64,000 nt of DNA, taken from a virus (taxonomy: Duplodnaviria > Heunggongvirae > Uroviricota > Caudoviricetes). The stretch lies in IMG/VR virus record IMGVR_UViG_3300044712_000123. One strand, written 5' to 3'. Below the pieces are notes generated by a model. It saw nothing but the letters and a program-made list of their open reading frames with translations. It was not told where the DNA came from and searched no databases. Position numbers and translations under genes: made by a program. Of this stretch, positions 904-58,571 are shown in pieces (position 1 is the stretch's first letter; each line of letters opens with the position of its first letter).

Positions 904-1527
904 ATGAATATTTATACCAGAAAGAATCCTCCCTCAGGGTTCTATGTTTACGCATACTTGCGTCAAGACAACACACCTTATTACATCGGAAAAGGTCACA
1001 ACATCCGAGCATGGAATCAGCACGATAAAGGTATACATCCACCCAAGGACCAGACAAAGATTGTCATAATTGAATCCAACTTGACTGACATAGGAGCGTT
1101 AGCACTTGAAAGAAGAATGATTCGTTGGTATGGTCGCAAAGATACGAATACCGGAATTCTCAGGAACTTGACTGATGGTGGCGATGGTTCTGCTGGATAT
1201 GTTCCGACAGAGGAAACAAGAATTAAAATAAGTGTAGCAGGTAAAGGCAGAAAATTAAAACCTAGAACTAAAGAGCACAGTGAAGCATTGAGTAAATCAT
1301 TGACTGGTAGGAAGTTAAGTGAGGACCATGTCTCTAAAATCAAAGAAAGACCTGCTTGGAATAAAGGACTAATCGGACACTACATACAATCTGAGGAATC
1401 AAACGAAAAAAGGTCTGAGGCCCTTAAAGGAAGAATTCCTTGGAATAAGGGAAAGTCCCCGAGTAAGGAGACTTTGGAAAAGCAAAGATTAGCGAGATTA
1501 AGAAACGGGCAAAGCCCGAAATCTTAA
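904..1527 (+). CDS. GIY-YIG homing endonuclease with NUMOD3-type DNA-binding repeats
   Basis: FYVYAY...YYIGKG...R, ALERRMI, ILRNLTDGGDG; C-terminal TEETRIKIS, PAWNKG and IPWNKG repeats; antisense to neighbours. Confidence 0.85.
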   Translation: MNIYTRKNPPSGFYVYAYLRQDNTPYYIGKGHNIRAWNQHDKGIHPPKDQTKIVIIESNLTDIGALALERRMIRWYGRKDTNTGILRNLTDGGDGSAGYVPTEETRIKISVAGKGRKLKPRTKEHSEALSKSLTGRKLSEDHVSKIKERPAWNKGLIGHYIQSEESNEKRSEALKGRIPWNKGKSPSKETLEKQRLARLRNGQSPKS

Positions 1528-3405: not shown

Positions 3406-4470
3406 TTAGAAAGCACCGTAGTAGTCATAGGTCTTAGTCTTGACCTTAGTCAGTGTCAAACGAGTACCTTTGTCCTCGAAGATGAACTTACCTGCTTGAG
3501 CGTCCACAGAGACCAATGCGTTAGCATTGAAGTGAACATTTTCCCAATCAGAGTCTTCATCGTCCTCATTGCTTGCATCGAACTGAACATCCACACCTTT
3601 TGGTTGCAGAGGGTTACCATCGAACACTGCAGGATGTACGTCACCCTTGACCAATTCACCATTGTGAACAACCTCAACGTTGTATTTGCAACCACCATCG
3701 AACTCTGGCTTAGCGTTCAGCATACGCAATGCTTCCTGAGGAGTCTCGTTGTAGCGATTCATTTCTTCAACCAATGCCTTCAGCATGTCAAAGTTGAATT
3801 CAGCGAACAGGCTAGCGATAGACACAATCTTTTCGATGTGAGTGGTGTTCTTCAAATTGTCCTCGCAGTATTCACGAATGAATGTTGCATCTAGACCCTT
3901 GAAGTCCATCAAGTAGAAGATACGACCAGGACGATTGCGCATGTGGTAGTCAATGCGGTACTTGTCGTTGGATGTAATCAAGAACAATTTCTTGCTTGGG
4001 AATACACCATCCAACAGTGTCAGGATCTTTTCTTGGTCGTCACGATCATACACCTTCTCGAATTCGTCAAACAAGATGACGCAAGGTTGATCGATAGACT
4101 GAATGAAGGTGTTGAAGTTTTCACCGCACAATGGTTGATTGATAACGATAGTTGGGATATCGTGCTGTTTAGCCAATTCAACTGCGATGTTCTTGGTCAA
4201 CAATGTCTTACCAGAACCCTTCTCACCCGTCAGCATAACGCCAGTTGCCGCAGGACGATCCATGAATGTACGCATGATACGATCGGTGTTCTTCAAGCAA
4301 TCACCGTAGACCTTGCTAGGGATTGTGAAGTCTTCGATATGTTCCAGATACATATCGCCCATTGGGGGAACTTTGATCGTGTAGTTACCTGCGGGCAACT
4401 TGTCACGCACGTCCATTGCCTCATTAGAAGCTACGCGGTATGTATTGCCAGATTTCAAAAAGTGTGCCAT
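3406..4470 (-). CDS. AAA+ ATPase
   Basis: Walker A GEKGSGKT, Walker B ILFDEFEK, second region of homology NRPGRI. Confidence 0.85.
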   Translation of the reverse strand: MAHFLKSGNTYRVASNEAMDVRDKLPAGNYTIKVPPMGDMYLEHIEDFTIPSKVYGDCLKNTDRIMRTFMDRPAATGVMLTGEKGSGKTLLTKNIAVELAKQHDIPTIVINQPLCGENFNTFIQSIDQPCVILFDEFEKVYDRDDQEKILTLLDGVFPSKKLFLITSNDKYRIDYHMRNRPGRIFYLMDFKGLDATFIREYCEDNLKNTTHIEKIVSIASLFAEFNFDMLKALVEEMNRYNETPQEALRMLNAKPEFDGGCKYNVEVVHNGELVKGDVHPAVFDGNPLQPKGVDVQFDASNEDDEDSDWENVHFNANALVSVDAQAGKFIFEDKGTRLTLTKVKTKTYDYYGAF

Positions 4471-4563
4471 GTGTGTCTTTCAAAAAGATTTAACGATTTA
4501 GAACTTAGATTATATGCGAGAACGGTTTTGTTGTACAGAAGAAAAGGGCAAGTACCCCTTTCT

Positions 4564-5967
4564 TTATTTCATGCTGTTAGCACGGACCTCGTCAAAGGTG
4601 TATTCACGGATGAGTTTACCATCACGATACACTTCAACTAGTGCCTCAGTCCAACCGCCGATGCCTTTGTCTGACCAACCAGTTGGGGCTGATACGCTAG
4701 TAGCGAACTCACCACCACTGTTAGTCCACAAAGTCACGCGACCTTTCAGACTTGCTTTACCACTGTCAGTGATAGGATCTTTGTAAACATCGACCCACTC
4801 ACCGTTGACACATGCACTAGAGCATTTCATAGCCCATTTCTGGGTATCACGATCAATGCCTTGCAACAAAGCACCGCCCATACCGAATGCAAAGTTATCT
4901 GCACTCCAGCCCAGCATGTCAACCATTGTGCGCAAGATTGCTTGGATGCTCAATGGATTGATACCATCACCCCAGATCATGCGAACGTTGTTCAACACTT
5001 TGTAACCTTTGTCGTTTGTAGTGTAGCCGAAACCTTCAGAAAGAATCTGAATCATCTTTGGCATCACTTCGACAGGATCACCACTGTCAGGACGAATCAC
5101 AACTGTAGCACCTGAATCGATCACTTGTTGTTTCAGATCACCTGTGCTCCACATTTTGCAGGCTTCGTAAATGTTGTAGCTGTCACTAACGACTGCAACA
5201 ATACCACCGGGCTTGCCAAACTGTGTGACCATGTTGCTGTAAGCATTCAACTCACCTGCACGACCCCAACTTGTGATTGTGCTGTGTTCTGCGGCTGGGA
5301 TTGAGAAACCAGCAATACCAGCGTTGTAATACTCACGAGCGTATAAGACACCAGTAATAGTATCCGTGCCCATAAAGTTAACGAGGTGAGCTGTACCACC
5401 AATACCAGCAGACTCAAGAGAGCTAACGCCGCGGGCACCGAAATCATGTAGTTTAAAACCAATAGTTGTTGGGTCACCAGATTTCTCCAAGTAGTCGATC
5501 AAAATATTTTTAATGTATTTGCTTTGTGTAGAAACTGTAGTTGGGTACCACACTGCACGGAGCAAGGGAGTTTCCAACCAAGTAGTCAACCAGTAGCAGT
5601 TTGGATCGGTGTTTTCGATTGTGACCAATGCGTTGCCAACTGGGACAACAGTGCCTTCTGGTACAGCTTTGATGACTACGGGCAAGTAGCCACCGAGATT
5701 GTCAACGATATAATCCCAGCGACTGCGGTCAAAGGGCTCGCCGTGTGCTGTGAGGATTTCTTCTGCGATATCAACATCGGCTTTTGTGATAGGGTTGAGC
5801 AAATATTCTTTATTGAAAATTTGCAGACCAATGAATTGCGTGAACGTGAATTTGCCACCACGACTTGCAATGTAAGAAAATACGCCAGTAGTACCTGCTG
5901 GGTATTGAGGGGCCATCGACACTTTGTAACTGTCGGTGTTCAAGATGATGTTTTGAGTGAGTTTCAT
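4564..5967 (-). CDS. nadV: nicotinamide phosphoribosyltransferase (NAMPT)
   Basis: TDSYKVS, LHDFGARG, SIPAAEHS, VSDSY, IRPDSGDP, GDGI, FGMGG motifs. Confidence 0.95.
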   Translation of the reverse strand: MKLTQNIILNTDSYKVSMAPQYPAGTTGVFSYIASRGGKFTFTQFIGLQIFNKEYLLNPITKADVDIAEEILTAHGEPFDRSRWDYIVDNLGGYLPVVIKAVPEGTVVPVGNALVTIENTDPNCYWLTTWLETPLLRAVWYPTTVSTQSKYIKNILIDYLEKSGDPTTIGFKLHDFGARGVSSLESAGIGGTAHLVNFMGTDTITGVLYAREYYNAGIAGFSIPAAEHSTITSWGRAGELNAYSNMVTQFGKPGGIVAVVSDSYNIYEACKMWSTGDLKQQVIDSGATVVIRPDSGDPVEVMPKMIQILSEGFGYTTNDKGYKVLNNVRMIWGDGINPLSIQAILRTMVDMLGWSADNFAFGMGGALLQGIDRDTQKWAMKCSSACVNGEWVDVYKDPITDSGKASLKGRVTLWTNSGGEFATSVSAPTGWSDKGIGGWTEALVEVYRDGKLIREYTFDEVRANSMK

Positions 5968-5986
5968 AATAAAGTTCCTTTATTTA

Positions 5987-6015
5987 AAGTTGCCTTGCGT
6001 CTATCGCTAGGACTT
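5987..6015 (-). promoter_or_regulatory. candidate structured 5'-leader hairpin (AUAGA loop), copy 1, upstream of nadV
   Basis: AAGU-CCU-A-GCG-AUAGA-CGC-A-AGG-CA-ACUU between promoter and SD; related copies at 10006 and 10778. Confidence 0.6.
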
Positions 6016-6046
6016 GAATACAGTATAACACTAACCTATTTTAATG

Positions 6047-6526
6047 TCAACTGTTTATGTTGCCAAAACTTAGTTTCCTTTTTAAAACAGCATCGACCAA
6101 TTCGTCAAAACTGTTAACTAAAGTTACACCGTGTCTTTGGCATACAATTTCCACATTGCCTTTGCGCCAGAATCCATCTGGACAGCATACAATGACTTTT
6201 CCGCTACTTGCGTAGAGTCCTAGTTCCATGAGAGTGATAGGACTTTTAGTGTTTGGATCAAAATAGAATACAATCAAGTCACTGTAATCTAATGCATCCA
6301 ATTCCCAATTAACTTGTTGAGCAAATTGAGGATTGCTTGCTTCCTGCACCCATGATGAATCCCAGTCATCACGCCGAGGATTCAAGAAACGAATGTCAGA
6401 GTCTTTGAACTCATTGACCAATCTGTCTTGCCAAGGTTCAGCAAGACCCATTTCAATAGAGCCACCCAAAAATACGTTGATAAAGATACTACCGTCATAA
6501 CGTTCAGGTGATTTGATGTGTTTCAT
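6047..6526 (-). CDS. nucleoside 2-deoxyribosyltransferase-like protein
   Basis: VFLGGSI, WQ, NPRRDDW, QVNWEL, SPITLMELGL, CCPDGFWRKGNV motifs. Confidence 0.85.
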   Translation of the reverse strand: MKHIKSPERYDGSIFINVFLGGSIEMGLAEPWQDRLVNEFKDSDIRFLNPRRDDWDSSWVQEASNPQFAQQVNWELDALDYSDLIVFYFDPNTKSPITLMELGLYASSGKVIVCCPDGFWRKGNVEIVCQRHGVTLVNSFDELVDAVLKRKLSFGNINS

Positions 6527-6924
6527 TATGACCTCCAAAATACCATAAACGGTTTGTTCTTCTTTACTGCATAGTCATACGTATACCAGGTGCCACCTCT
6601 TGGTTGTGGTTCCATCTGCAATGGTACAACTAACAAGTAATCACACGCATCTACAATTGTGCGATTACGTTTAAAGTGTGACTGTGGTTCTCTACTTTCA
6701 TCTGCAGGTACATAGGCTCTGAGTCCATCATTATCAGGTCCAGGATGACTGATGATCTTGTAACCAATATCTTTTGCAAGTACTGCGGCTTCTGCATCTA
6801 CGCCAACGCAATCACCGTGATGAAATTCTGCACCTTCACAAAATCTTCCTTGAAGATATTGACGCACCATTTCAAACTGGTGATCAGTCATGCCTTCTCT
6901 AGTTCCTGTAATTCCTATTTTCAT
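6526..6924 (-). CDS. SLOG-superfamily (YspA/DprA-like) nucleotide-binding protein
   Basis: IGITGTR, HHGDCVGVD, RNRTIVD, GGTWYT motifs. Confidence 0.7.
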   Translation of the reverse strand: MKIGITGTREGMTDHQFEMVRQYLQGRFCEGAEFHHGDCVGVDAEAAVLAKDIGYKIISHPGPDNDGLRAYVPADESREPQSHFKRNRTIVDACDYLLVVPLQMEPQPRGGTWYTYDYAVKKNKPFMVFWRS

Positions 6925-7412
6925 TATCCAAACTCCACCAGTGTGACAGTGCCACCTTTAGCAGAAACCACTACAGCAAACTTTTCAATCATTGCCATAA
7001 TTCTTTTCTTGTCGCCGCCTGCCAAACCCATACCAATATAGGGTAGACCAAAACGATGACGACCATATTCGTGTGCCAGCTTGCGTAGGATCACGGCAAA
7101 CGATTCATACTCAAATACATCTTCACCTTGTTGACTAGTGACATATTGTGTATAAGCATTGATAATCTTGAATGGCTTCATGGTTTCATCGTAGTAACTA
7201 GACCAAGATACTGTGTAGTTGCCTAGCTTACCGATATTGCCCTTGCGAGTTTCACTATCCACTTCCTCAGCGTGAGGATAGCGTTTTGCGATTTGCGGAG
7301 CAAGACCAGCACCCATTGCGTTAAAACAATTACAGCCTTGAACGACAATATCAAACTCGCCTGCTTCTGCTAGGTCGAGTAAATTACCTTTTGTATGTTT
7401 AAGCATTTTCAT
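6924..7412 (-). CDS. macrodomain (ADP-ribose binding/processing) protein
   Basis: GNLL, IVVQGCNCFNAMGAGLA, INAYTQ, PYIGMGLAGG motifs. Confidence 0.9.
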   Translation of the reverse strand: MKMLKHTKGNLLDLAEAGEFDIVVQGCNCFNAMGAGLAPQIAKRYPHAEEVDSETRKGNIGKLGNYTVSWSSYYDETMKPFKIINAYTQYVTSQQGEDVFEYESFAVILRKLAHEYGRHRFGLPYIGMGLAGGDKKRIMAMIEKFAVVVSAKGGTVTLVEFG

Positions 7413-7587
7413 TTTCCATTTCTGTCACAATAGCTTCGGCTTCTTGCAAGCCGCGTTCCCAACGAGCCATCATTTCACGGAAGGCTCGAATGTTCTCATG
7501 ATTGTGAAAAGTGTCGCCACTCCATACACAAGCATCGATATCGTCCATTGGACCGTCTTCTAATCGTTCGTATTGTCGTGTTGTCAT
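7399..7587 (-). CDS. hypothetical protein
   Basis: overlapping stop/start with neighbours. Confidence 0.6.
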   Translation of the reverse strand: MTTRQYERLEDGPMDDIDACVWSGDTFHNHENIRAFREMMARWERGLQEAEAIVTEMENENA

Positions 7588-7889
7588 ACGTCTACCTTAA
7601 AATGATTTTTAATCATGTTGATTGCTTGCTCGGTACCTTCTTCTGATTCTAACATAGAAATGATTTCAATGAAAGTATCTTCCAACAAAAAGTCAAACGG
7701 TGAGCGAGGAATATGGTCTATATTGCGTCGGCGATCTTCCATAGATCCTAAATACTCATCCTCAGCATCATCAAGCGATTGTTTTGCAAACTCTATTAGT
7801 TCTGTGCTTTGTTCAATGAACGGAGCCCTACCATGAAACAAATATTCTAATGGAATGTCATTCCTTTTGCTAAGTTTTGGTCGATTCAT
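7584..7889 (-). CDS. hypothetical protein
   Basis: ATGA-coupled ORF; ends IKNHFKV, like the FAELIV-family C-terminus. Confidence 0.6.
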   Translation of the reverse strand: MNRPKLSKRNDIPLEYLFHGRAPFIEQSTELIEFAKQSLDDAEDEYLGSMEDRRRNIDHIPRSPFDFLLEDTFIEIISMLESEEGTEQAINMIKNHFKVDV

Positions 7890-8137
7890 TCTTCAACTCC
7901 GAAATGTTGTTTAATCTCGTCTATACAATGTATCCCACCTTGTTCAAAAGTATCAACTGATTTAGGAATAGGATCACTAATAACTTGTTCACAACATCCG
8001 ATACATTCCCCGACAATCAACTCGGCGAACTTTTCCGGGTCAAACTTAATACCCAGTTTCGCACCGTCTGGTCCTACATTCACATATGAATCTGTAACAA
8101 ATGACTGTTCATAAAGTTTCTGTAACTGTTCGTTCAT
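7886..8137 (-). CDS. small phage protein, MNE...KFAELIV family
   Basis: MNEQLQKLY...EKFAELIVGEC...IKQHFGVEE; SD AGGA before ATG at 8137. Confidence 0.75.
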   Translation of the reverse strand: MNEQLQKLYEQSFVTDSYVNVGPDGAKLGIKFDPEKFAELIVGECIGCCEQVISDPIPKSVDTFEQGGIHCIDEIKQHFGVEE

Positions 8138-8159
8138 TTTCACATTCCTAATTGATTTA

Positions 8160-8260
8160 GATAAATAATTATAGCACAAACGGTAATTTGTGTCAACAAA
8201 AATGTCCCTCGCGGAACGGTAATTCCCAGGGACTCTAACGCTACAAAGGAGCAATCAGCA
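8160..8260 (+). promoter_or_regulatory. late-type promoter (GATAAATA) plus structured leader of second GIY-YIG gene
   Basis: stem GTCCCT/AGGGAC enclosing GGAA/TTCC, then TCTAACGCT...AGGAGC...AGCAATG. Confidence 0.7.
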
Positions 8261-8965
8261 ATGTATTTATTCATATACAAGACCACTCACAAAAACGGCA
8301 AATACTACATAGGTCGCCATCAAACAGATAACCTGAATGACGGGTATCTCGGTAGCGGTAAGTGGGTTTCCGCCATCAAAGACAAAACCACACTGACCCG
8401 AGAAATTATAGCAGAGGCTAAAACTCTTGAAGAACTGTATGATCTTGAAGAATATCATATCTCTATCCATTATGGAAAACCAGAATGTATGAATATGAAG
8501 CGAGGCAGTGACGGTAATACCAGTGAAGATGCTAAAGAGTTCGCAAAAAGAATGATTGAAAATGGAACCCACAATTTTCTTGGCGGCGATCTTCAACGAA
8601 GGAGAATCACTGATGGCACCCACAATTTTCTTGATGGTGAAATTGCTAGTAAATCTAACGCCAAGAGAATTGCTGAAGGCACTCATAACTTACAAGGCTC
8701 CAACAATCCGACACATCGCAGAATTCAAGATGGCACTTACCATATGTTTGGTGAGAACAATCCTGCCGTTCAGCGAGTCCAACAAGGCACCCACAACTTT
8801 CTTGGTCCAGAAAACAATCAGCGAAGGATTGATAATGGTTCTCATAACTTTCTGGGACCCAATGCTCCATCGCAATTCGTATGGCATTGTGATGCCTGTG
8901 GTAAGACAGGCAAGGGTAAAGGAATATTCACTAGATTCCATGGTGTCAATTGCCGCCAATCGTAG
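8261..8965 (+). CDS. GIY-YIG (Seg-like) homing endonuclease with six GTHNFL repeats and C-terminal Cys/His finger
   Basis: FIYKTT...YYIGRH...YLGSG, E and N catalytic positions; repeats RxxxGTHNFLG; CDAC...FHGVNC. Confidence 0.85.
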   Translation: MYLFIYKTTHKNGKYYIGRHQTDNLNDGYLGSGKWVSAIKDKTTLTREIIAEAKTLEELYDLEEYHISIHYGKPECMNMKRGSDGNTSEDAKEFAKRMIENGTHNFLGGDLQRRRITDGTHNFLDGEIASKSNAKRIAEGTHNLQGSNNPTHRRIQDGTYHMFGENNPAVQRVQQGTHNFLGPENNQRRIDNGSHNFLGPNAPSQFVWHCDACGKTGKGKGIFTRFHGVNCRQS

Positions 8966-9986
8966 AGCCTACTGCCCATTCAATCATGTCGGCGTGATCT
9001 TCAAACAGTTCTTCTCTCTTTAGATCAGAGATAGGCCGCCAGAGTGCTTTTTCAGCATCGTCACTGCCTTTTACTTTTGGCAGTTCGCCATCGGGCAATA
9101 CGATTTTGAAACAGTGTGTGATGATACGACCGCGTGGTGAGCGATCCACAGCATCAAAAACACGATTGTCAACAATACTACCACGCAGTACAGGACCGGG
9201 CACTTTGATTAAAGTTTCTTCACGCAACTCACGAATAGCCGCATCCAATACAGTCTTGTCAGTGTTTGCGTTAACATAACCACCGGGCAATGCCCACAAG
9301 CCTTTACCAGGTTCGCTACGGCGTTTAATCATCAACACGTGACCTGACTGAATCACAACACTATCCGCAGTAGAGAAGATTGGGGGATATGGCAGACTAG
9401 CATATTGCTTTTTGTAGTTAGCCACGAACTCACGCTCCTTGATGATTTGTTCAAACTCGGGAGTTTGGCTGAACTCATTCAGAAAATCATAAGTTGTTTG
9501 GGGCACGACACCGCGAATGAAACTCATGTTAACATCCCGTTTGAAATACAGGTCGCGAATGTTGACTGCACTGAGTGGTTCGATTTCTTCCACGTTCTCG
9601 TATTCCCATTGAGGGAACATATCGAGGTAGAAACTTGATTCGTCTTTCTTGTGACCGATCACACCGATCTTGCCACCGAGAGCACGATATTTACTAACGA
9701 TGCCTTGAACACGAATTGCCCATGCCTGGTCGTTGTAGATGGTGTCAATGTTTTCTTCAACATGAATTTGAATGCTCAAGCCTGAGGTAGCAGACTTAAT
9801 CATGTTGCGGCGTTCTTGACTAGTGAAGGGGTTTTTGTAAGTGCGAGGTTGAGCGGCTGAACCAGTGATGATAATCAGTTGTTCGCACAATGCGGTTGCA
9901 CGTTTCACAATCTCGCAGTGAGCATTGTGGAATGGTTGAAAGCGTCCAATGAGGACAAGAGTGTGATATTTTTTAGTGAATGACAT
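8946..9986 (-). CDS. nadM: bifunctional NMN adenylyltransferase / ADP-ribose pyrophosphatase (NadM-Nudix)
   Basis: IGRFQPFHNAH (HxGH-like), NPFT..ER, Nudix box GG...AIRELREET, SDDA. Confidence 0.93.
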   Translation of the reverse strand: MSFTKKYHTLVLIGRFQPFHNAHCEIVKRATALCEQLIIITGSAAQPRTYKNPFTSQERRNMIKSATSGLSIQIHVEENIDTIYNDQAWAIRVQGIVSKYRALGGKIGVIGHKKDESSFYLDMFPQWEYENVEEIEPLSAVNIRDLYFKRDVNMSFIRGVVPQTTYDFLNEFSQTPEFEQIIKEREFVANYKKQYASLPYPPIFSTADSVVIQSGHVLMIKRRSEPGKGLWALPGGYVNANTDKTVLDAAIRELREETLIKVPGPVLRGSIVDNRVFDAVDRSPRGRIITHCFKIVLPDGELPKVKGSDDAEKALWRPISDLKREELFEDHADMIEWAVGSTIGGN

Positions 9987-43600: not shown

Positions 43601-44212
43601 TCAATCGTTTTGGTCATCCTCGTCATCGTCGGACCAGTCGTCATAATCAATTGCATCCAAATCGATATCGCTGGTCCCTTGATACTTTGGGTCGTCATAC
43701 ATCCTATAGTATCCTTCATTAGGCATAAGTTTTCTAAAGTCTGTATCTGTCAGCATTAGTGCGAGGTAAGTTACATCGCTTGCATTGTGGATATCAGTTA
43801 CGTAGTACGTAGTTGTACATGCGCCACCTATACTTTTGATAGGACCATGTTTGATTTTCTTTTCTTTGAGCAACTCACGCAGTTTGTTTCCTCCCCAACC
43901 ACTGATAGTTACACGGGTAATGCCTTTCTTGGCATTGTTCAATCGGACCTTATCGTGGGTCGTGAGTTCTGAGATTGTTGCGTTGTTCTCATCGTCAATC
44001 GTAAGGAGTGATTCCTTGATTTTGATAGAGCCTTTTGTCGCAGGATTGTCGGGAGTTTCTTTGGTATCCCAGGGAAGTTTACAGTGAACATGATTCACGT
44101 AAAATGATTCACCATGTGTTTTTAAGACCCACATAGGTATGGTCTGATCTTGCAAATGTCCCTTGTTGAAGTGGAACACTATGTCCTTACATGCGTATTC
44201 AATCTATGCCAT
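43601..44212 (-). CDS. phage protein with in-frame amber codon at codon 3 (predicted read-through)
   Basis: AAAGGAG-N8-ATG GCA TAG ATT GAA TAC GCA TGT AAG GAC ATA GTG TTC..., in frame with ORF 43601-44179, whose GTG has only a weak, closely spaced AAGGA. Confidence 0.75.
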
Positions 44213-44247
44213 TTTGATTTCTCCTTTGTTAATAGCAATTTTATTTA

Positions 44248-44526
44248 TTAGAAATTTGCTTCTTCTAATTCTTCGTCAGTTAGACTCTCATACCGTAGTT
44301 GAACTCTACCATCATACTTGAGCAACAACCATGTTAGTTCTTCATCGGTATGTGTGTTCAAGTAAATCTTGTGTCGGTCAGTTAATATTCCATAACCAGT
44401 AGTCGCATCGCACCAGCCACTATCACCCTGTTCATAAGGAGACTCTAGATCATAATCTACACCAGAGTTGTTGATCCATTCAACATCATCTTGGGTGTAA
44501 GGTGGGGGCAAGTACCAAGTTTTCAT
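44248..44526 (-). CDS. hypothetical protein
   Basis: between the tRNA and the amber-containing gene; ELTWLLLKY motif. Confidence 0.6.
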   Translation of the reverse strand: MKTWYLPPPYTQDDVEWINNSGVDYDLESPYEQGDSGWCDATTGYGILTDRHKIYLNTHTDEELTWLLLKYDGRVQLRYESLTDEELEEANF

Positions 44527-44538
44527 ATTTACAAATTA

Positions 44539-44613
44539 TGGTGCGCTAGACGGGAATCGAACCCGTGATTCAGAGTTTTAGAGGCTCCTGCTATGCCACT
44601 TAGCTACTAGCGC
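44539..44613 (-). tRNA. amber suppressor tRNA (anticodon CUA), CCA encoded
   Basis: GCGCTAG acceptor stem, GCTA/TAGC D-stem, anticodon arm GGAGC-CT[CTA]AA-ACTCT, T-arm ACGGG-TTCGATT-CCCGT, ends ACCA; promoter TTTACA-N17-TATAAT at 44626-44654. Confidence 0.88.
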
Positions 44614-44633
44614 AGTATGAGAGTTATTATACA

Positions 44634-44664
44634 CAAAAAGAAAGGCTCTGTAAAGAGCCTTTCT
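44634..44664 (-). terminator. intrinsic terminator overlapping the tRNA promoter -35 box
   Basis: AGAAAGGCTCT-N4-AGAGCCTTTCT followed by a U-tract on the minus strand. Confidence 0.75.
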
Positions 44665-44681: not shown

Positions 44682-45134
44682 TTAGAATGTATACTTCAAG
44701 CCTGCAGTAACAGTGTTACCATCAGAATCCTGAACACGCTTCTGACCATACTGACGAGCCGTATCCAAAGTGAAAGCAACTTGCTTAGTCAATGGAAGGG
44801 TTGCGCCAACACCGACAGCCAATGCATAGCCATCACTAGTAGTTTGGTTATTCAAGTATGCGACTGCAACTTTGGGAGTCACAGTGACAGGGCCGAACTT
44901 AGCAATGTCGTAGCCAGCAGTAACGCTGTAACGGTCTTGATCGTTAGCACCCTTAGTGAAACGTTCGAAGCCACCTGTAACGCTAACCTTGCCATATGAT
45001 TGACCAACCGCGATACCGAAGCCTTGACGGGCAGTTGGTGCGCTATAGTCAGTTGTTGATGTTACGCCAACTTCCAAAGCTGATGCTGAGAATGCGGCGA
45101 CTGCTAAGATTGATGCGATTGCAAATTTTTTCAT
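44682..45134 (-). CDS. outer-membrane beta-barrel protein (OmpA-TM/Ail-like)
   Basis: Sec signal peptide MKKFAIASILAVAAFSASA, alternating beta-strands, C-terminal beta-signal AGLKYTF. Confidence 0.82.
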   Translation of the reverse strand: MKKFAIASILAVAAFSASALEVGVTSTTDYSAPTARQGFGIAVGQSYGKVSVTGGFERFTKGANDQDRYSVTAGYDIAKFGPVTVTPKVAVAYLNNQTTSDGYALAVGVGATLPLTKQVAFTLDTARQYGQKRVQDSDGNTVTAGLKYTF

Positions 45135-45204
45135 TTAGTTTTCCTTTAAAAAATGCTTCTTTCGAAACATGAACTATTATATATCACTCGAAAAGTACAT
45201 GCAA

Positions 45205-45230
45205 TAAAAAAGGCTACCGAAGTAGCCTTT
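45205..45230 (-). terminator. intrinsic terminator after tmRNA
   Basis: AAAGGCTAC-CGAA-GTAGCCTTT followed by a U-tract on the minus strand. Confidence 0.8.
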
Positions 45231-45231
45231 A

Positions 45232-45525
45232 GTGAGTTTCTGTTACGAGGTATTTCTTACCCTAGCGGCCTTTATCAGGCTGCAATGCGGAAACTTTCGT
45301 CATTTGCATTTAAGTTTTTTGCGTCTACGACCGGGTCACCCCAATCCTACGGGTTCTGCTTTCCCGAGCTGTCCACTCTGTTACTCTTTGCCCTGTCGAA
45401 ACCATTTCATCCCCAACAACAACACACTATTTCTAATATGCTCTTGGTGGAGATGGGGGCTTCGAAGCCCCGTCCAAGACTCATTTCTCGTTGTATCTTT
45501 CCTTTCGGACTTTACAGCAATATTC
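45232..45525 (-). ncRNA. ssrA: tmRNA, circularly permuted two-piece gene; tag ANDESFRIAA
   Basis: acceptor piece ends ...GGAC-GGGGC-TTCGAA-GCCCC-CATCTCC-ACCA (45445); 30-nt spacer; coding piece starts GGGGATG (45414) giving G3.U70; tag ORF 45307-45278 then TGA TAA; outer ends approximate. Confidence 0.9.
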
Positions 45526-46158
45526 TTATTTAATCAATCTACGCTTTTGTAAATTCAATTCTGCTATTTTAGCATCGTCTGGCTTTAGATAGTAATTCTT
45601 CTCACCATCGTTATACCAGTGTCTACCAAAGGCATTGTTGTTTTTATTCTTGCGTAGTTGACTCCATTCAGTTGTTGTGATCCAACCTTCCGGGATTTGT
45701 TCTTTATTATACTTCTTGCGTGATGACAAGTCAACCGCATCTTTTACCACACACCAAACTTTTCCAAATTGAGAATTGTTTTCTTTCTGTTGGTGCTGTC
45801 TTTCGGCAAAGGTCTTCTTACGCTTTTCCATTGCGGATTCACTATTGGCTAAAGCACACACCTTCTTTTGATGTTCTTCATTCACGGCAAAATTGTGTTC
45901 AGTGCGGATACCAGTGAATGGATTAGGGTGTAATTGATGGCGCAACTTTGCCGCTTCTCGTTGTCTTATTCTTACCAATTCTTCTTTTGGGCTTAACTTT
46001 GCTAACCCGTGCCACGCAACATAATCTTGCCAACGACCATATTCTTCGTATAACTTGCGATGTGCTTCTGCGTGGTCATCAACAGACAATTCTACAAGAT
46101 TACTCGGATCGTCTGTTCCGCCTGCGTGTTTAGGAATAATGTGATGTTTGTGGCTCAT
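45526..46158 (-). CDS. HNH homing endonuclease
   Basis: HKHHIIPKHAGGTDDPSNLVELSVDDHAEAH; C-terminal NSQFGKVW and GRHWYNDG repeats; TATAAATA at 46164-46171. Confidence 0.85.
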   Translation of the reverse strand: MSHKHHIIPKHAGGTDDPSNLVELSVDDHAEAHRKLYEEYGRWQDYVAWHGLAKLSPKEELVRIRQREAAKLRHQLHPNPFTGIRTEHNFAVNEEHQKKVCALANSESAMEKRKKTFAERQHQQKENNSQFGKVWCVVKDAVDLSSRKKYNKEQIPEGWITTTEWSQLRKNKNNNAFGRHWYNDGEKNYYLKPDDAKIAELNLQKRRLIK

Positions 46159-57613: not shown

Positions 57614-58571
57614 TATCTAATGTGACACAGTGGAAGCAACCTCCCAGTGTACGTGCGTGACGCATTGGTAACATCTTAACTTCAATACCCTTTGCTTCTA
57701 ACATATCACGCAAGTTTGTTTGATGTTCTTCTACGATAGCTAAGTTAGGATTAACGCTAAACATATTTACACTGACCCATGTGCTAGCATTACAAAAGCC
57801 AGGGTAATGTCCAATATCAACAGGCTCAGGTGCCCAGATTACATCCCAATTACGCAATACCTCAGGTAATTGTTCTACTGATTTAATACGTGATGGGTTT
57901 AATAGCATTAATCCTTCACGCAACAATGCAATCGTACTGTCTAAATGCATATAGCTGTAAACATTCTCAATTAAATGCACACGCTTGTTTGGATGTAAGT
58001 GACGCAACATCTCTGCACCTGTCTTATTTCCGCTATTGCTCACAAGATAAAACAAGTCATCATTGCAACGTAATACATTGGCAGCATCAAACGCAGGCTC
58101 TGTCTCATTCAGTGCTAAGATATCAGGGTTGCCGATACAGTTCGCATTATACAGATTAGTATTGCGTGGGATGTTCGTTGCCATGACTTTACCGTATTGT
58201 TTAAGTGTGCCGTACATAGCTTTGAACTCATTAGCTCTACTACGCAATGGGTTAGGAGTAGCGAGGATAACGTCATCGTGAATCAATACTGTGTCACGTG
58301 GGCAATAGTTGTAATAGTCTGGCTTGAAGGACTTATCTGGACGATAGACAGTAACACCCTGACTCTTTAAGAAGTCGCTTAATATCTCTAAGTCTTCGTT
58401 CGCTTCGTCAATCACTTGTTGTGGATATGGACCCTGCGGTAAGTTATACATATAACGCTTGTCTGCATAGTTGACAAGTCGCAAGCTAGGATCTGCTAGG
58501 GGAATACGTGCATCATCTGCGATACCCACGATCACTGACTTTAATGGGTCCCATTCATTCTTACTTAACAT
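57594..58571 (-). CDS. amidinotransferase (glycine/inosamine-phosphate type)
   Basis: NEWDPLKSVIVG, CPRD, FDAAN, HLDST, GGCFHCVTLD. Confidence 0.92.
   Translation of the reverse strand: MLSKNEWDPLKSVIVGIADDARIPLADPSLRLVNYADKRYMYNLPQGPYPQQVIDEANEDLEILSDFLKSQGVTVYRPDKSFKPDYYNYCPRDTVLIHDDVILATPNPLRSRANEFKAMYGTLKQYGKVMATNIPRNTNLYNANCIGNPDILALNETEPAFDAANVLRCNDDLFYLVSNSGNKTGAEMLRHLHPNKRVHLIENVYSYMHLDSTIALLREGLMLLNPSRIKSVEQLPEVLRNWDVIWAPEPVDIGHYPGFCNASTWVSVNMFSVNPNLAIVEEHQTNLRDMLEAKGIEVKMLPMRHARTLGGCFHCVTLDIERNHE

Follow-up and report, generated by a model that had tools for sequence, protein, structure and literature searches.

Comparative sequence analysis indicates that an in-frame TAG codon just behind the start of a phage gene is a selected feature, and that it is very probably read through by a suppressor tRNA encoded by the phage itself. 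The gene lies in a 64,000-nt stretch of Caudoviricetes DNA (IMG/VR record IMGVR_UViG_3300044712_000123; hereafter the window), which is part of a large T4-like phage and encodes terminase, rIIA/B, UvsX/UvsY, and SSB. An earlier note on this DNA had described a complete tRNA with a CUA anticodon and a gene carrying TAG as its third codon. ARAGORN and Rfam agree on the tRNA, and the Shine-Dalgarno (SD) sequence, the ATG, the in-frame TAG, and the ORF were all confirmed (Table 1). We refer to the start with its early stop as the gate.

Table 1. Features of the gate locus in the window.
Feature	Position	Strand	Remark
Gated gene, 203 codons	43601..44212	-	open frame past TAG to TGA 43601-43603
Gated protein: residues 4-83 form a beta-rich N domain and residues 99-165 a ferredoxin/ACT-like C domain, with an acidic tail	43601..44212	-	
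Gate: SD, ATG GCA, TAG, then ATT	44201..44227	-	SD AAAGGAG 44227-44221; ATG at 44212; TAG 44206-44204
TAATAAATA, T4-late-promoter-like motif	44242..44250	-	read from sequence
ORF of 92 codons between tRNA and gated gene	44248..44526	-	
Amber-suppressor-type tRNA(CUA), 75 nt with encoded CCA	44539..44613	-	ARAGORN, Rfam
Anticodon of tRNA(CUA)	44579-44581	-	
Sigma70-like promoter of the tRNA, TTTACA-17-TATAAT	44626..44654	-	read from sequence; function inferred
Permuted tmRNA, betaproteobacterial type	45184..45536	-	context, not core part

Sequencing error does not account for the TAG of the window. One contig, which comes from an independent study and spans 43916-44421, differs only at 44258 and has the same TAG, and no variant at 44204-44206 was among those listed for three runs covering the site, so that the codon reported in the earlier note is genuine. 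The gated gene lies downstream of the tRNA, with 327 nt between the tRNA and its ATG. A scan for an SD, an ATG, an early TAG, and a long ORF returned this single case in the window, and a separate scan added a GTG case with a weak SD at 57628. Relatives of the 92-codon ORF stand directly upstream of the target gene in 10 of 98 loci. The promoter of the tRNA overlaps the terminator hairpin of the porin-like gene upstream, a 150-aa outer-membrane beta-barrel-like gene with a YfaZ match (44682-45134, minus strand) located between tmRNA and tRNA. Elsewhere in the window, two homing-endonuclease genes (8261-8965 and 904-1527, plus strand) run opposite to nearby genes, and NAD salvage genes (3406-9986, minus strand; nicotinamide phosphoribosyltransferase, NadM/Nudix-like) lie close to phosphatase and GTP-binding-domain genes.

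To describe the early stop across homologues, we collected the best 80 of 362 viral matches, all 3 genome-bin matches, and the best 80 of 531 metagenome matches, which together with the window gave 164 loci; without two that lack the anchor motif and two cut by contig ends, 160 were scorable. An in-frame TAG follows soon after the start in 155 of the 160, and 5 have no stop there. Neither CAA, CAG, TAA, nor TGA occupies the gate codon in any of the 160, and CAA is common at the codons next to it. Below 90% identity the early TAG is found in 93 of 98 loci. We examined 62 TAG-bearing representatives drawn from the viral matches and the genome bins, whose identity averages 58% (the minimum over all 65 is 44%). 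In 45 of them the third codon is the TAG; all 62 have an SD before the ATG, and E5 does not vary. The homologues begin M-x-TAG-IE, the N-terminus that the earlier note had expected. Residues 5-11 vary mainly at third codon positions (entropy 1.06 versus 0.42 and 0.43). The base 3' of the gate TAG is A in 92 of 93 loci, compared with 21 of 55 at true TAG gene ends. The conserved TAG, the conserved A, and coding selection past the TAG together indicate that the frame is translated through the stop and that selection acts on the stop as well. The start region folds weakly, at -8.8 kcal/mol on average across 90 nt, thus no structured read-through element is evident. Two gated loci (L109 and L110) reside on short contigs binned as Bifidobacterium and Flavobacteriaceae genomes, which are probably mis-binned phage DNA.

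It is hardly credible that no read-through takes place, that is, that the TAG closes a mini-ORF with translation starting at V12 (GTG) or M27, or that the phage uses code 15. Gene callers do begin many homologues at V12 or M27 and put Q into others, and in one locus (L139) the gate is kept six codons upstream of a second SD and ATG past the TAG. However, the codon of residue 12 is GTG in 34 of the 62 representatives and GTC, GTT, or GTA in the other 28, E5 never varies, and a strand of the predicted fold is made up of residues 4-16. The residues past the TAG evolve as protein, coding selection being seen at residues 5-11, and therefore GTG is not the start, a possibility that the earlier note had named against its own proposal. 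Two further candidates were rejected. A frameshift or hop of the prfB type does not fit, as the ATG and the downstream ORF share one frame and the take-off codon is repeated in only 7 of 62 representatives. Q at residue 3 of database proteins was dismissed as evidence for glutamine, the DNA being TAG in every readable case; this Q is likely a gene-caller choice of code.

Genome-wide tests were run on four near-complete relatives (332-361 kb), which stand in for the window phage. These four are standard-code phages, not recoded ones. TAG ends 16 of 403, 34 of 417, 42 of 376, and 18 of 344 of their genes (4-11%), and their coding coverage under codes 11 and 15 is 0.921/0.916, 0.915/0.914, 0.928/0.932 (G012), and 0.932/0.924. 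The earlier note had judged the window to use the standard code as well; there, TAG ends 3 of 85 genes of at least 70 aa, and coverage drops from 0.929 under code 11 to 0.922 once TAG is taken as a sense codon. In the relatives, 5569 frames containing a TAG were screened, a procedure blind to stops within the first 8 residues; it gave 23 homology-flanked matches, all antisense or low-complexity by eye, and hence no conserved gene with an internal TAG. A frame with a TAG in its middle (G005, 97496-99553) was by eye resolved into two adjacent genes, aminotransferase-like and radical-SAM-like. A start-gate scan recovered the target in each of the four genomes, plus 5 weaker early-TAG matches (1 in G005, 2 in G011, 2 in G012) that are likely due to chance. 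With one convincing gated gene in each standard-code relative, the proposal that the suppressor licenses one gene or a few stands.

The code-15 alternative, with TAG read as Gln, could point to the CUA-anticodon phage tRNA, which is one mark of such phages and is present here, and to the slightly higher coverage of G012 with read-through (0.932 versus 0.928). It was nevertheless rejected: coverage is otherwise not raised, TAG ends genes, no conserved gene has an internal TAG in the four genomes, no Gln codon is seen at the gate, and the tRNA lacks the Gln identity elements. A single RF-1-domain gene was found, in one of the four genomes, so a phage release factor is not a fixed partner. It encodes a 124-aa GGQ protein within the tRNA cluster of G005 (L192:1411-1785), ArfB-like by size, and is absent from the other three genomes. 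All four relatives carry the permuted tmRNA, which in the window is in two pieces with the tag ANDESFRIAA; it adjoins the gate locus in the window, L001, L002, and G005 and is distant in G011 and G012.

The co-occurrence of the TAG with a CUA tRNA across related phages, as foreseen in the earlier note, was observed. The tRNA is in the flank of 55 of 62 TAG loci having at least 3.5 kb upstream, and it was found elsewhere on the contig in all 5 checked loci initially scored negative. Each of the four near-complete relatives has one CUA tRNA; that of G005 stands beside the target gene, more than 200 kb from a cluster of 34 tRNAs. Among 98 representative loci, the closest CUA tRNA is upstream of the gene in all 67 in which one was found, frequently less than 100 nt from the gated ATG. 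Two different CUA tRNAs per genome are seen in the L050 contig (G008: 991, 1390), the XacN1 repeats, and Phosso (171983, 446731), where the second may serve another gate.

This arrangement could also reflect a timing or feed-forward gate, in which the tRNA, made from an early promoter, would have to be processed, charged, and built up before the protein appears; the outcome would be a delay and a sharper dependence on phage gene dosage, with no stress being sensed. The sigma70-like promoter of the tRNA and the late-type motif of the gene (TAAATA precedes 46 of 92 gated starts, compared with 306 of the 1172 remaining ATG genes) are in line with this, as are the upstream position and short distance of the tRNA, and the same logic is proposed for recoded late genes in the accessible text of Borges et al. 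(10.1101/2021.08.26.457843). Yet a late promoter by itself suffices for a delay, timing leaves unexplained why the gate sits on Pth2 and HD genes (see below) instead of lysis or virion genes, and in Rhizobium phage RHph_I1_18 the CUA tRNA is downstream, 11 nt past the stop of the gated gene. We regard timing as a serious but unlikely explanation.

We aligned 58 distinct copies of the CUA tRNA. U33-CUA and the pairs G1-C72 and C2-G71 are invariant in all 58, G3-C70 is present in 53, and position 73 is A in 52 and G in 6. At position 31.39, 47 copies have a mismatch, 9 have U.G, and 2 have a Watson-Crick pair. The window tRNA (64 bits with the Rfam tRNA model) has G1-C72, C2-G71, G3-C70, A73, a C31.A39 mismatch, and the loop C32-U33-CUA-A37-A38. 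As expected of functional suppressors, the cloverleaf, U33-CUA-A37, and CCA are kept while the body is highly variable. Position 8 is not U in 29 of the 58, and some (L005, L082) have a shortened D arm. Several CUA tRNAs of cultured phages have other acceptor stems or a paired 31-39.

The loose anticodon stem would also suit a fixed attenuator or genetic lock, with constantly lowered output or a gene silent in cells without the tRNA, because a mismatch or wobble at 31.39 in 56 of 58 tRNAs could weaken the suppressor. An A directly 3' of a stop favours read-through. Such a context, and the strong SD kept in all 62 representatives although a weaker SD would be cheaper, make a fixed attenuator very improbable.

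Which synthetase charges the suppressor was approached through identity elements established for E. coli, not for the likely betaproteobacterial host. According to the accessible text of PMC1483225, lysine identity comprises U34, U35, U36, and A73, glutamine identity elements include U1-A72, G2-C71, G3-C70, and G73, and LysRS prefers a loose 31-39 pair, a tighter one reducing lysine charging. Judged by these elements, the phage tRNA is lysine-like and not glutamine-like. Class II Lys/Asp/Asn and Glu/Gln synthetases, the classes searched, are absent in 4 of 4 genomes, and our best guess is that lysine, loaded by the host, would be the inserted residue. With G73 in six of the tRNAs, differing acceptor stems or a paired 31-39 in several from cultured phages, and a UCA tRNA that would not be lysylated, one charging enzyme cannot hold for all. 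The residue is probably immaterial, because ungated homologues simply start there. No pyl genes were found among the 93 window proteins with PHROGs, and the cloverleaf is canonical by Rfam.

The gated protein belongs to a small family of 170 representatives. Sequence comparison of the window protein with PHROG, Pfam, and PDB gave no match, Foldseek returned none with an E value of 0.001 or lower, and by Pfam the protein is not a PTH2 member. AlphaFold2 gave a confident two-domain model with pLDDT 83.9 (92.8 for the N domain alone). For the C domain, Z goes up to 6.9, and ACT and RRM domains tie with other ferredoxin-like ones. No structural match of the N domain reaches Z 5; ADP-ribosyltransferases head its list at Z 2.5-3.2 (HopU1, Z 3.2, rmsd 3.9, 62 aligned; SpvB and XopAI, Z 3.0), which is noise level. 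The accessible text of PMC9503650 offers nothing specific for an ADP-ribosyltransferase lead. The N domain also occurs alone, or fused behind a helical protein, whose free form stands in L050 between the target and a Pth2-like gene (probability 97%). Genes often seen near the target encode a zinc-ribbon protein (41 of 98 loci), AhpC (30), and AhpD (26). The window protein is predicted to be tied to tRNA recycling through its neighbourhood and shared gate only.

The loci without a TAG were then placed on the protein tree, where they need four changes, one being a distant outgroup and three nested losses. Both gate and tRNA are missing from the 2.2 kb of the outgroup (L111). Three of the 5 loci lacking a TAG (L048, L050, and L168) have a target that begins with a plain ATG, and in them an upstream gene of the same operon starts SD-ATG-NNN-TAG-AT; this gated gene is Pth2-like. 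The N domain and Pth2 share operons in L048, L050, L168, L321, Phosso, and Atu_ph07. PTH2 (PF01981) scores exceed the Pfam cut-off for Phosso (73.2 bits), RaK2 (27.2), XacN1 (25.3), and RsoM2USA (25.1), fall under it for GAP32, ME3, L048, L321, and L322, and there is no PTH2 Pfam match in Arash, L050, and L168. Homing-endonuclease-like genes with NUMOD3, inserted at the target start (L052:5313-5984, L035:4470-5135, and in L039 about 720 nt upstream of target residue 12), duplicate the gate, so the nuclease itself comes to lie behind TAG, or TAA in L039. Judging by these arrangements, the gate is a movable cassette.

Ten cultured phages were drawn from 3 of 4 records (the fourth a duplicate) plus 7 of 35 records. 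Gate and tRNA agree in 10 of 10, GAP32 and BF being near kin: eight pair TAG with CUA, one pairs TGA with UCA, and one has neither. RHph_I1_18 encodes the N domain by itself, in a gene whose sixth codon is TAG. In Sinorhizobium phage Phosso, which has two CUA tRNAs, TAG is codon 4 of a Pth2 gene two genes upstream of an N-domain fusion. A Pth2-like gene has TAG at codon 3 or 4 in RsoM2USA, GAP32, BF, ME3, and Arash; in XacN1 the third codon of an HD-Pth2 fusion is TAG, and each of these phages has a CUA tRNA. RaK2 lacks both gate and CUA tRNA by pattern search. In Atu_ph07 the gene orthologous to that of Phosso has TGA at codon 7, and the tRNAs read include a UCA tRNA and none with CUA. This joint switch of stop and anticodon, seen in one phage only, is the strongest evidence that the tRNA would read the gate. 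In GAP32 (L277:2830-3396) and BF (L278:2821-3387) the Pth2-like gene is followed by an HD-type gene with TAG at codon 47, which is annotated as split in these two and continuous in ME3 and Arash. The gated genes are unannotated in RHph_I1_18, RsoM2USA, and BF and annotated with too late a start in Phosso, GAP32, ME3, Arash, XacN1, and Atu_ph07. The gate thus exposes genes missed or truncated by annotation, and since it is present in cultured phage-host pairs, the switch is already open to testing.

For the function of the gate, we tentatively favour, at close to but below even chances, translation-stress sensing by read-through that raises a predicted tRNA- or ribosome-recycling protein. Host RF1 and a weakly charged suppressor would compete at codon 3. 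Host LysRS would charge the suppressor poorly while tRNA-Lys is free, given U35, A73, the loose 31.39 pair, and no phage LysRS or GlnRS. As Heurgue-Hamard reportedly found in 1996, a shortage of Pth in E. coli deprives the cells of Lys-tRNA-Lys. Read-through would rise once tRNA-Lys is held as peptidyl-tRNA or cut, or, as in prfB, once termination falters, and the gated product would refill the tRNA pool, so that the gate closes again. A broader version is somewhat more doubtful: a dedicated suppressor tRNA, weak by design, and a portable SD-ATG-Nn-stop-A cassette may form a widespread feedback sensor of tRNA-pool and termination stress, rewired between UAG and UGA; once translation is jammed by host defences, it would turn on HD enzymes, peptidyl-tRNA hydrolases, and a new domain for tRNA rescue. 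Against a tight tie to Pth2, tblastn with Pth2-like queries found no match in the window, G005, G006, and G012, and the Pth2-like gene of G011 (near 226528) is ungated, 9 kb from the gated target. General tRNA damage would hit the suppressor as well and close the gate, which counts against a sensor. The earlier suggestion of a sensor shut off by tRNA cleavage fits poorly, with the gate also on tRNA-recycling genes.

Pth enzymes act on N-blocked aminoacyl-tRNA and not on ordinary aminoacyl-tRNA. This preference argues against sentinel autoregulation, in which the gated enzyme would deacylate or modify tRNAs including the suppressor and so limit its own synthesis below a toxic level. The gated Pth2-like hydrolases and HD proteins, the constancy of pairs 1-72 and 2-71 of the acceptor stem in 58 of 58 tRNAs, and the ADP-ribosyltransferases among the fold rows of the N domain would fit it, but a Z near 3 is noise level, and we consider it rather improbable.

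Suppressor tRNAs have been noted in standard-code phages before. The accessible text of the XacN1 paper (PMC5852040) states that targets of its CUA tRNAs were not identifiable after annotated amber gene ends had been tested, and those of the Atu_ph07 (PMC6102473) and RsoM2USA (PMC8504454) papers note a suppressor tRNA and name no target. These orphan suppressors (CUA, UCA, and CUA, respectively) are the same tRNAs as analysed here, and the early-stop HD-Pth2 fusion or Pth2-like genes are their candidate targets; the stops lie upstream of the annotated start or in unannotated genes. Suppressor tRNAs of standard-code phages thereby gain a concrete, testable job that the genome papers did not give them. 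The accessible text of Borges et al. (bioRxiv 10.1101/2021.08.26.457843) describes suppressor tRNAs in recoded phages (code 15 in crAss-like and Lak phages, code 4 in Jade phages) and treats those of standard-code relatives as a step toward recoding. A suppressor need not be such a step and can be maintained for the sake of one codon in phage groups that infect different hosts. PTH2 of jumbo phages is discussed in RNA repair and ribosome rescue in the accessible part of PMC7824862, whose main text lacks the word "suppressor" and describes no gating; the gated gene class of nine cultured phages is partly the same. No description of a single-gene suppressor gate was found in the literature searched, mostly papers outside subscription and without supplements. 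If it is true that the gate senses translation stress, it would be a new phage answer to tRNA-targeting defences.

The gate shares features with several known systems. The prfB gene (RF2) is autoregulated through an internal UGA that is escaped by +1 frameshifting. Here too an early in-frame stop would be the point of competition in a gene predicted for termination or rescue, but prfB changes frame, whereas the gate keeps it and a dedicated tRNA would be the bypass. The Streptomyces bldA tRNA-Leu gates TTA-containing genes, and in both cases a single tRNA licenses a small gene set; bldA reads a rare sense codon with its own amino-acid identity, while the stop here would be contested with release factor. 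In pyrrolysine and selenocysteine systems, tRNA(CUA) and tRNA(UCA) act at chosen stops, and ARAGORN labels the phage tRNAs Pyl and SeC. Unlike them, the phage tRNAs are ordinary at 74-78 nt, and the residue falls in a variable N-terminus and is missing in ungated homologues. With recoded phages, as portrayed in the accessible text of Borges et al., the gate has in common a suppressor tRNA, an in-frame stop, host synthetases, and a proposed control of translation timing. In contrast to them, the code here is standard with TAG still in use at gene ends, read-through would concern one or two codons, the stop lies at codons 3-7, neither lysis nor virion genes are targets, and the tRNA is without Gln identity. 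The gate is a form of tRNA-gated expression distinct from that of code-15 phages.
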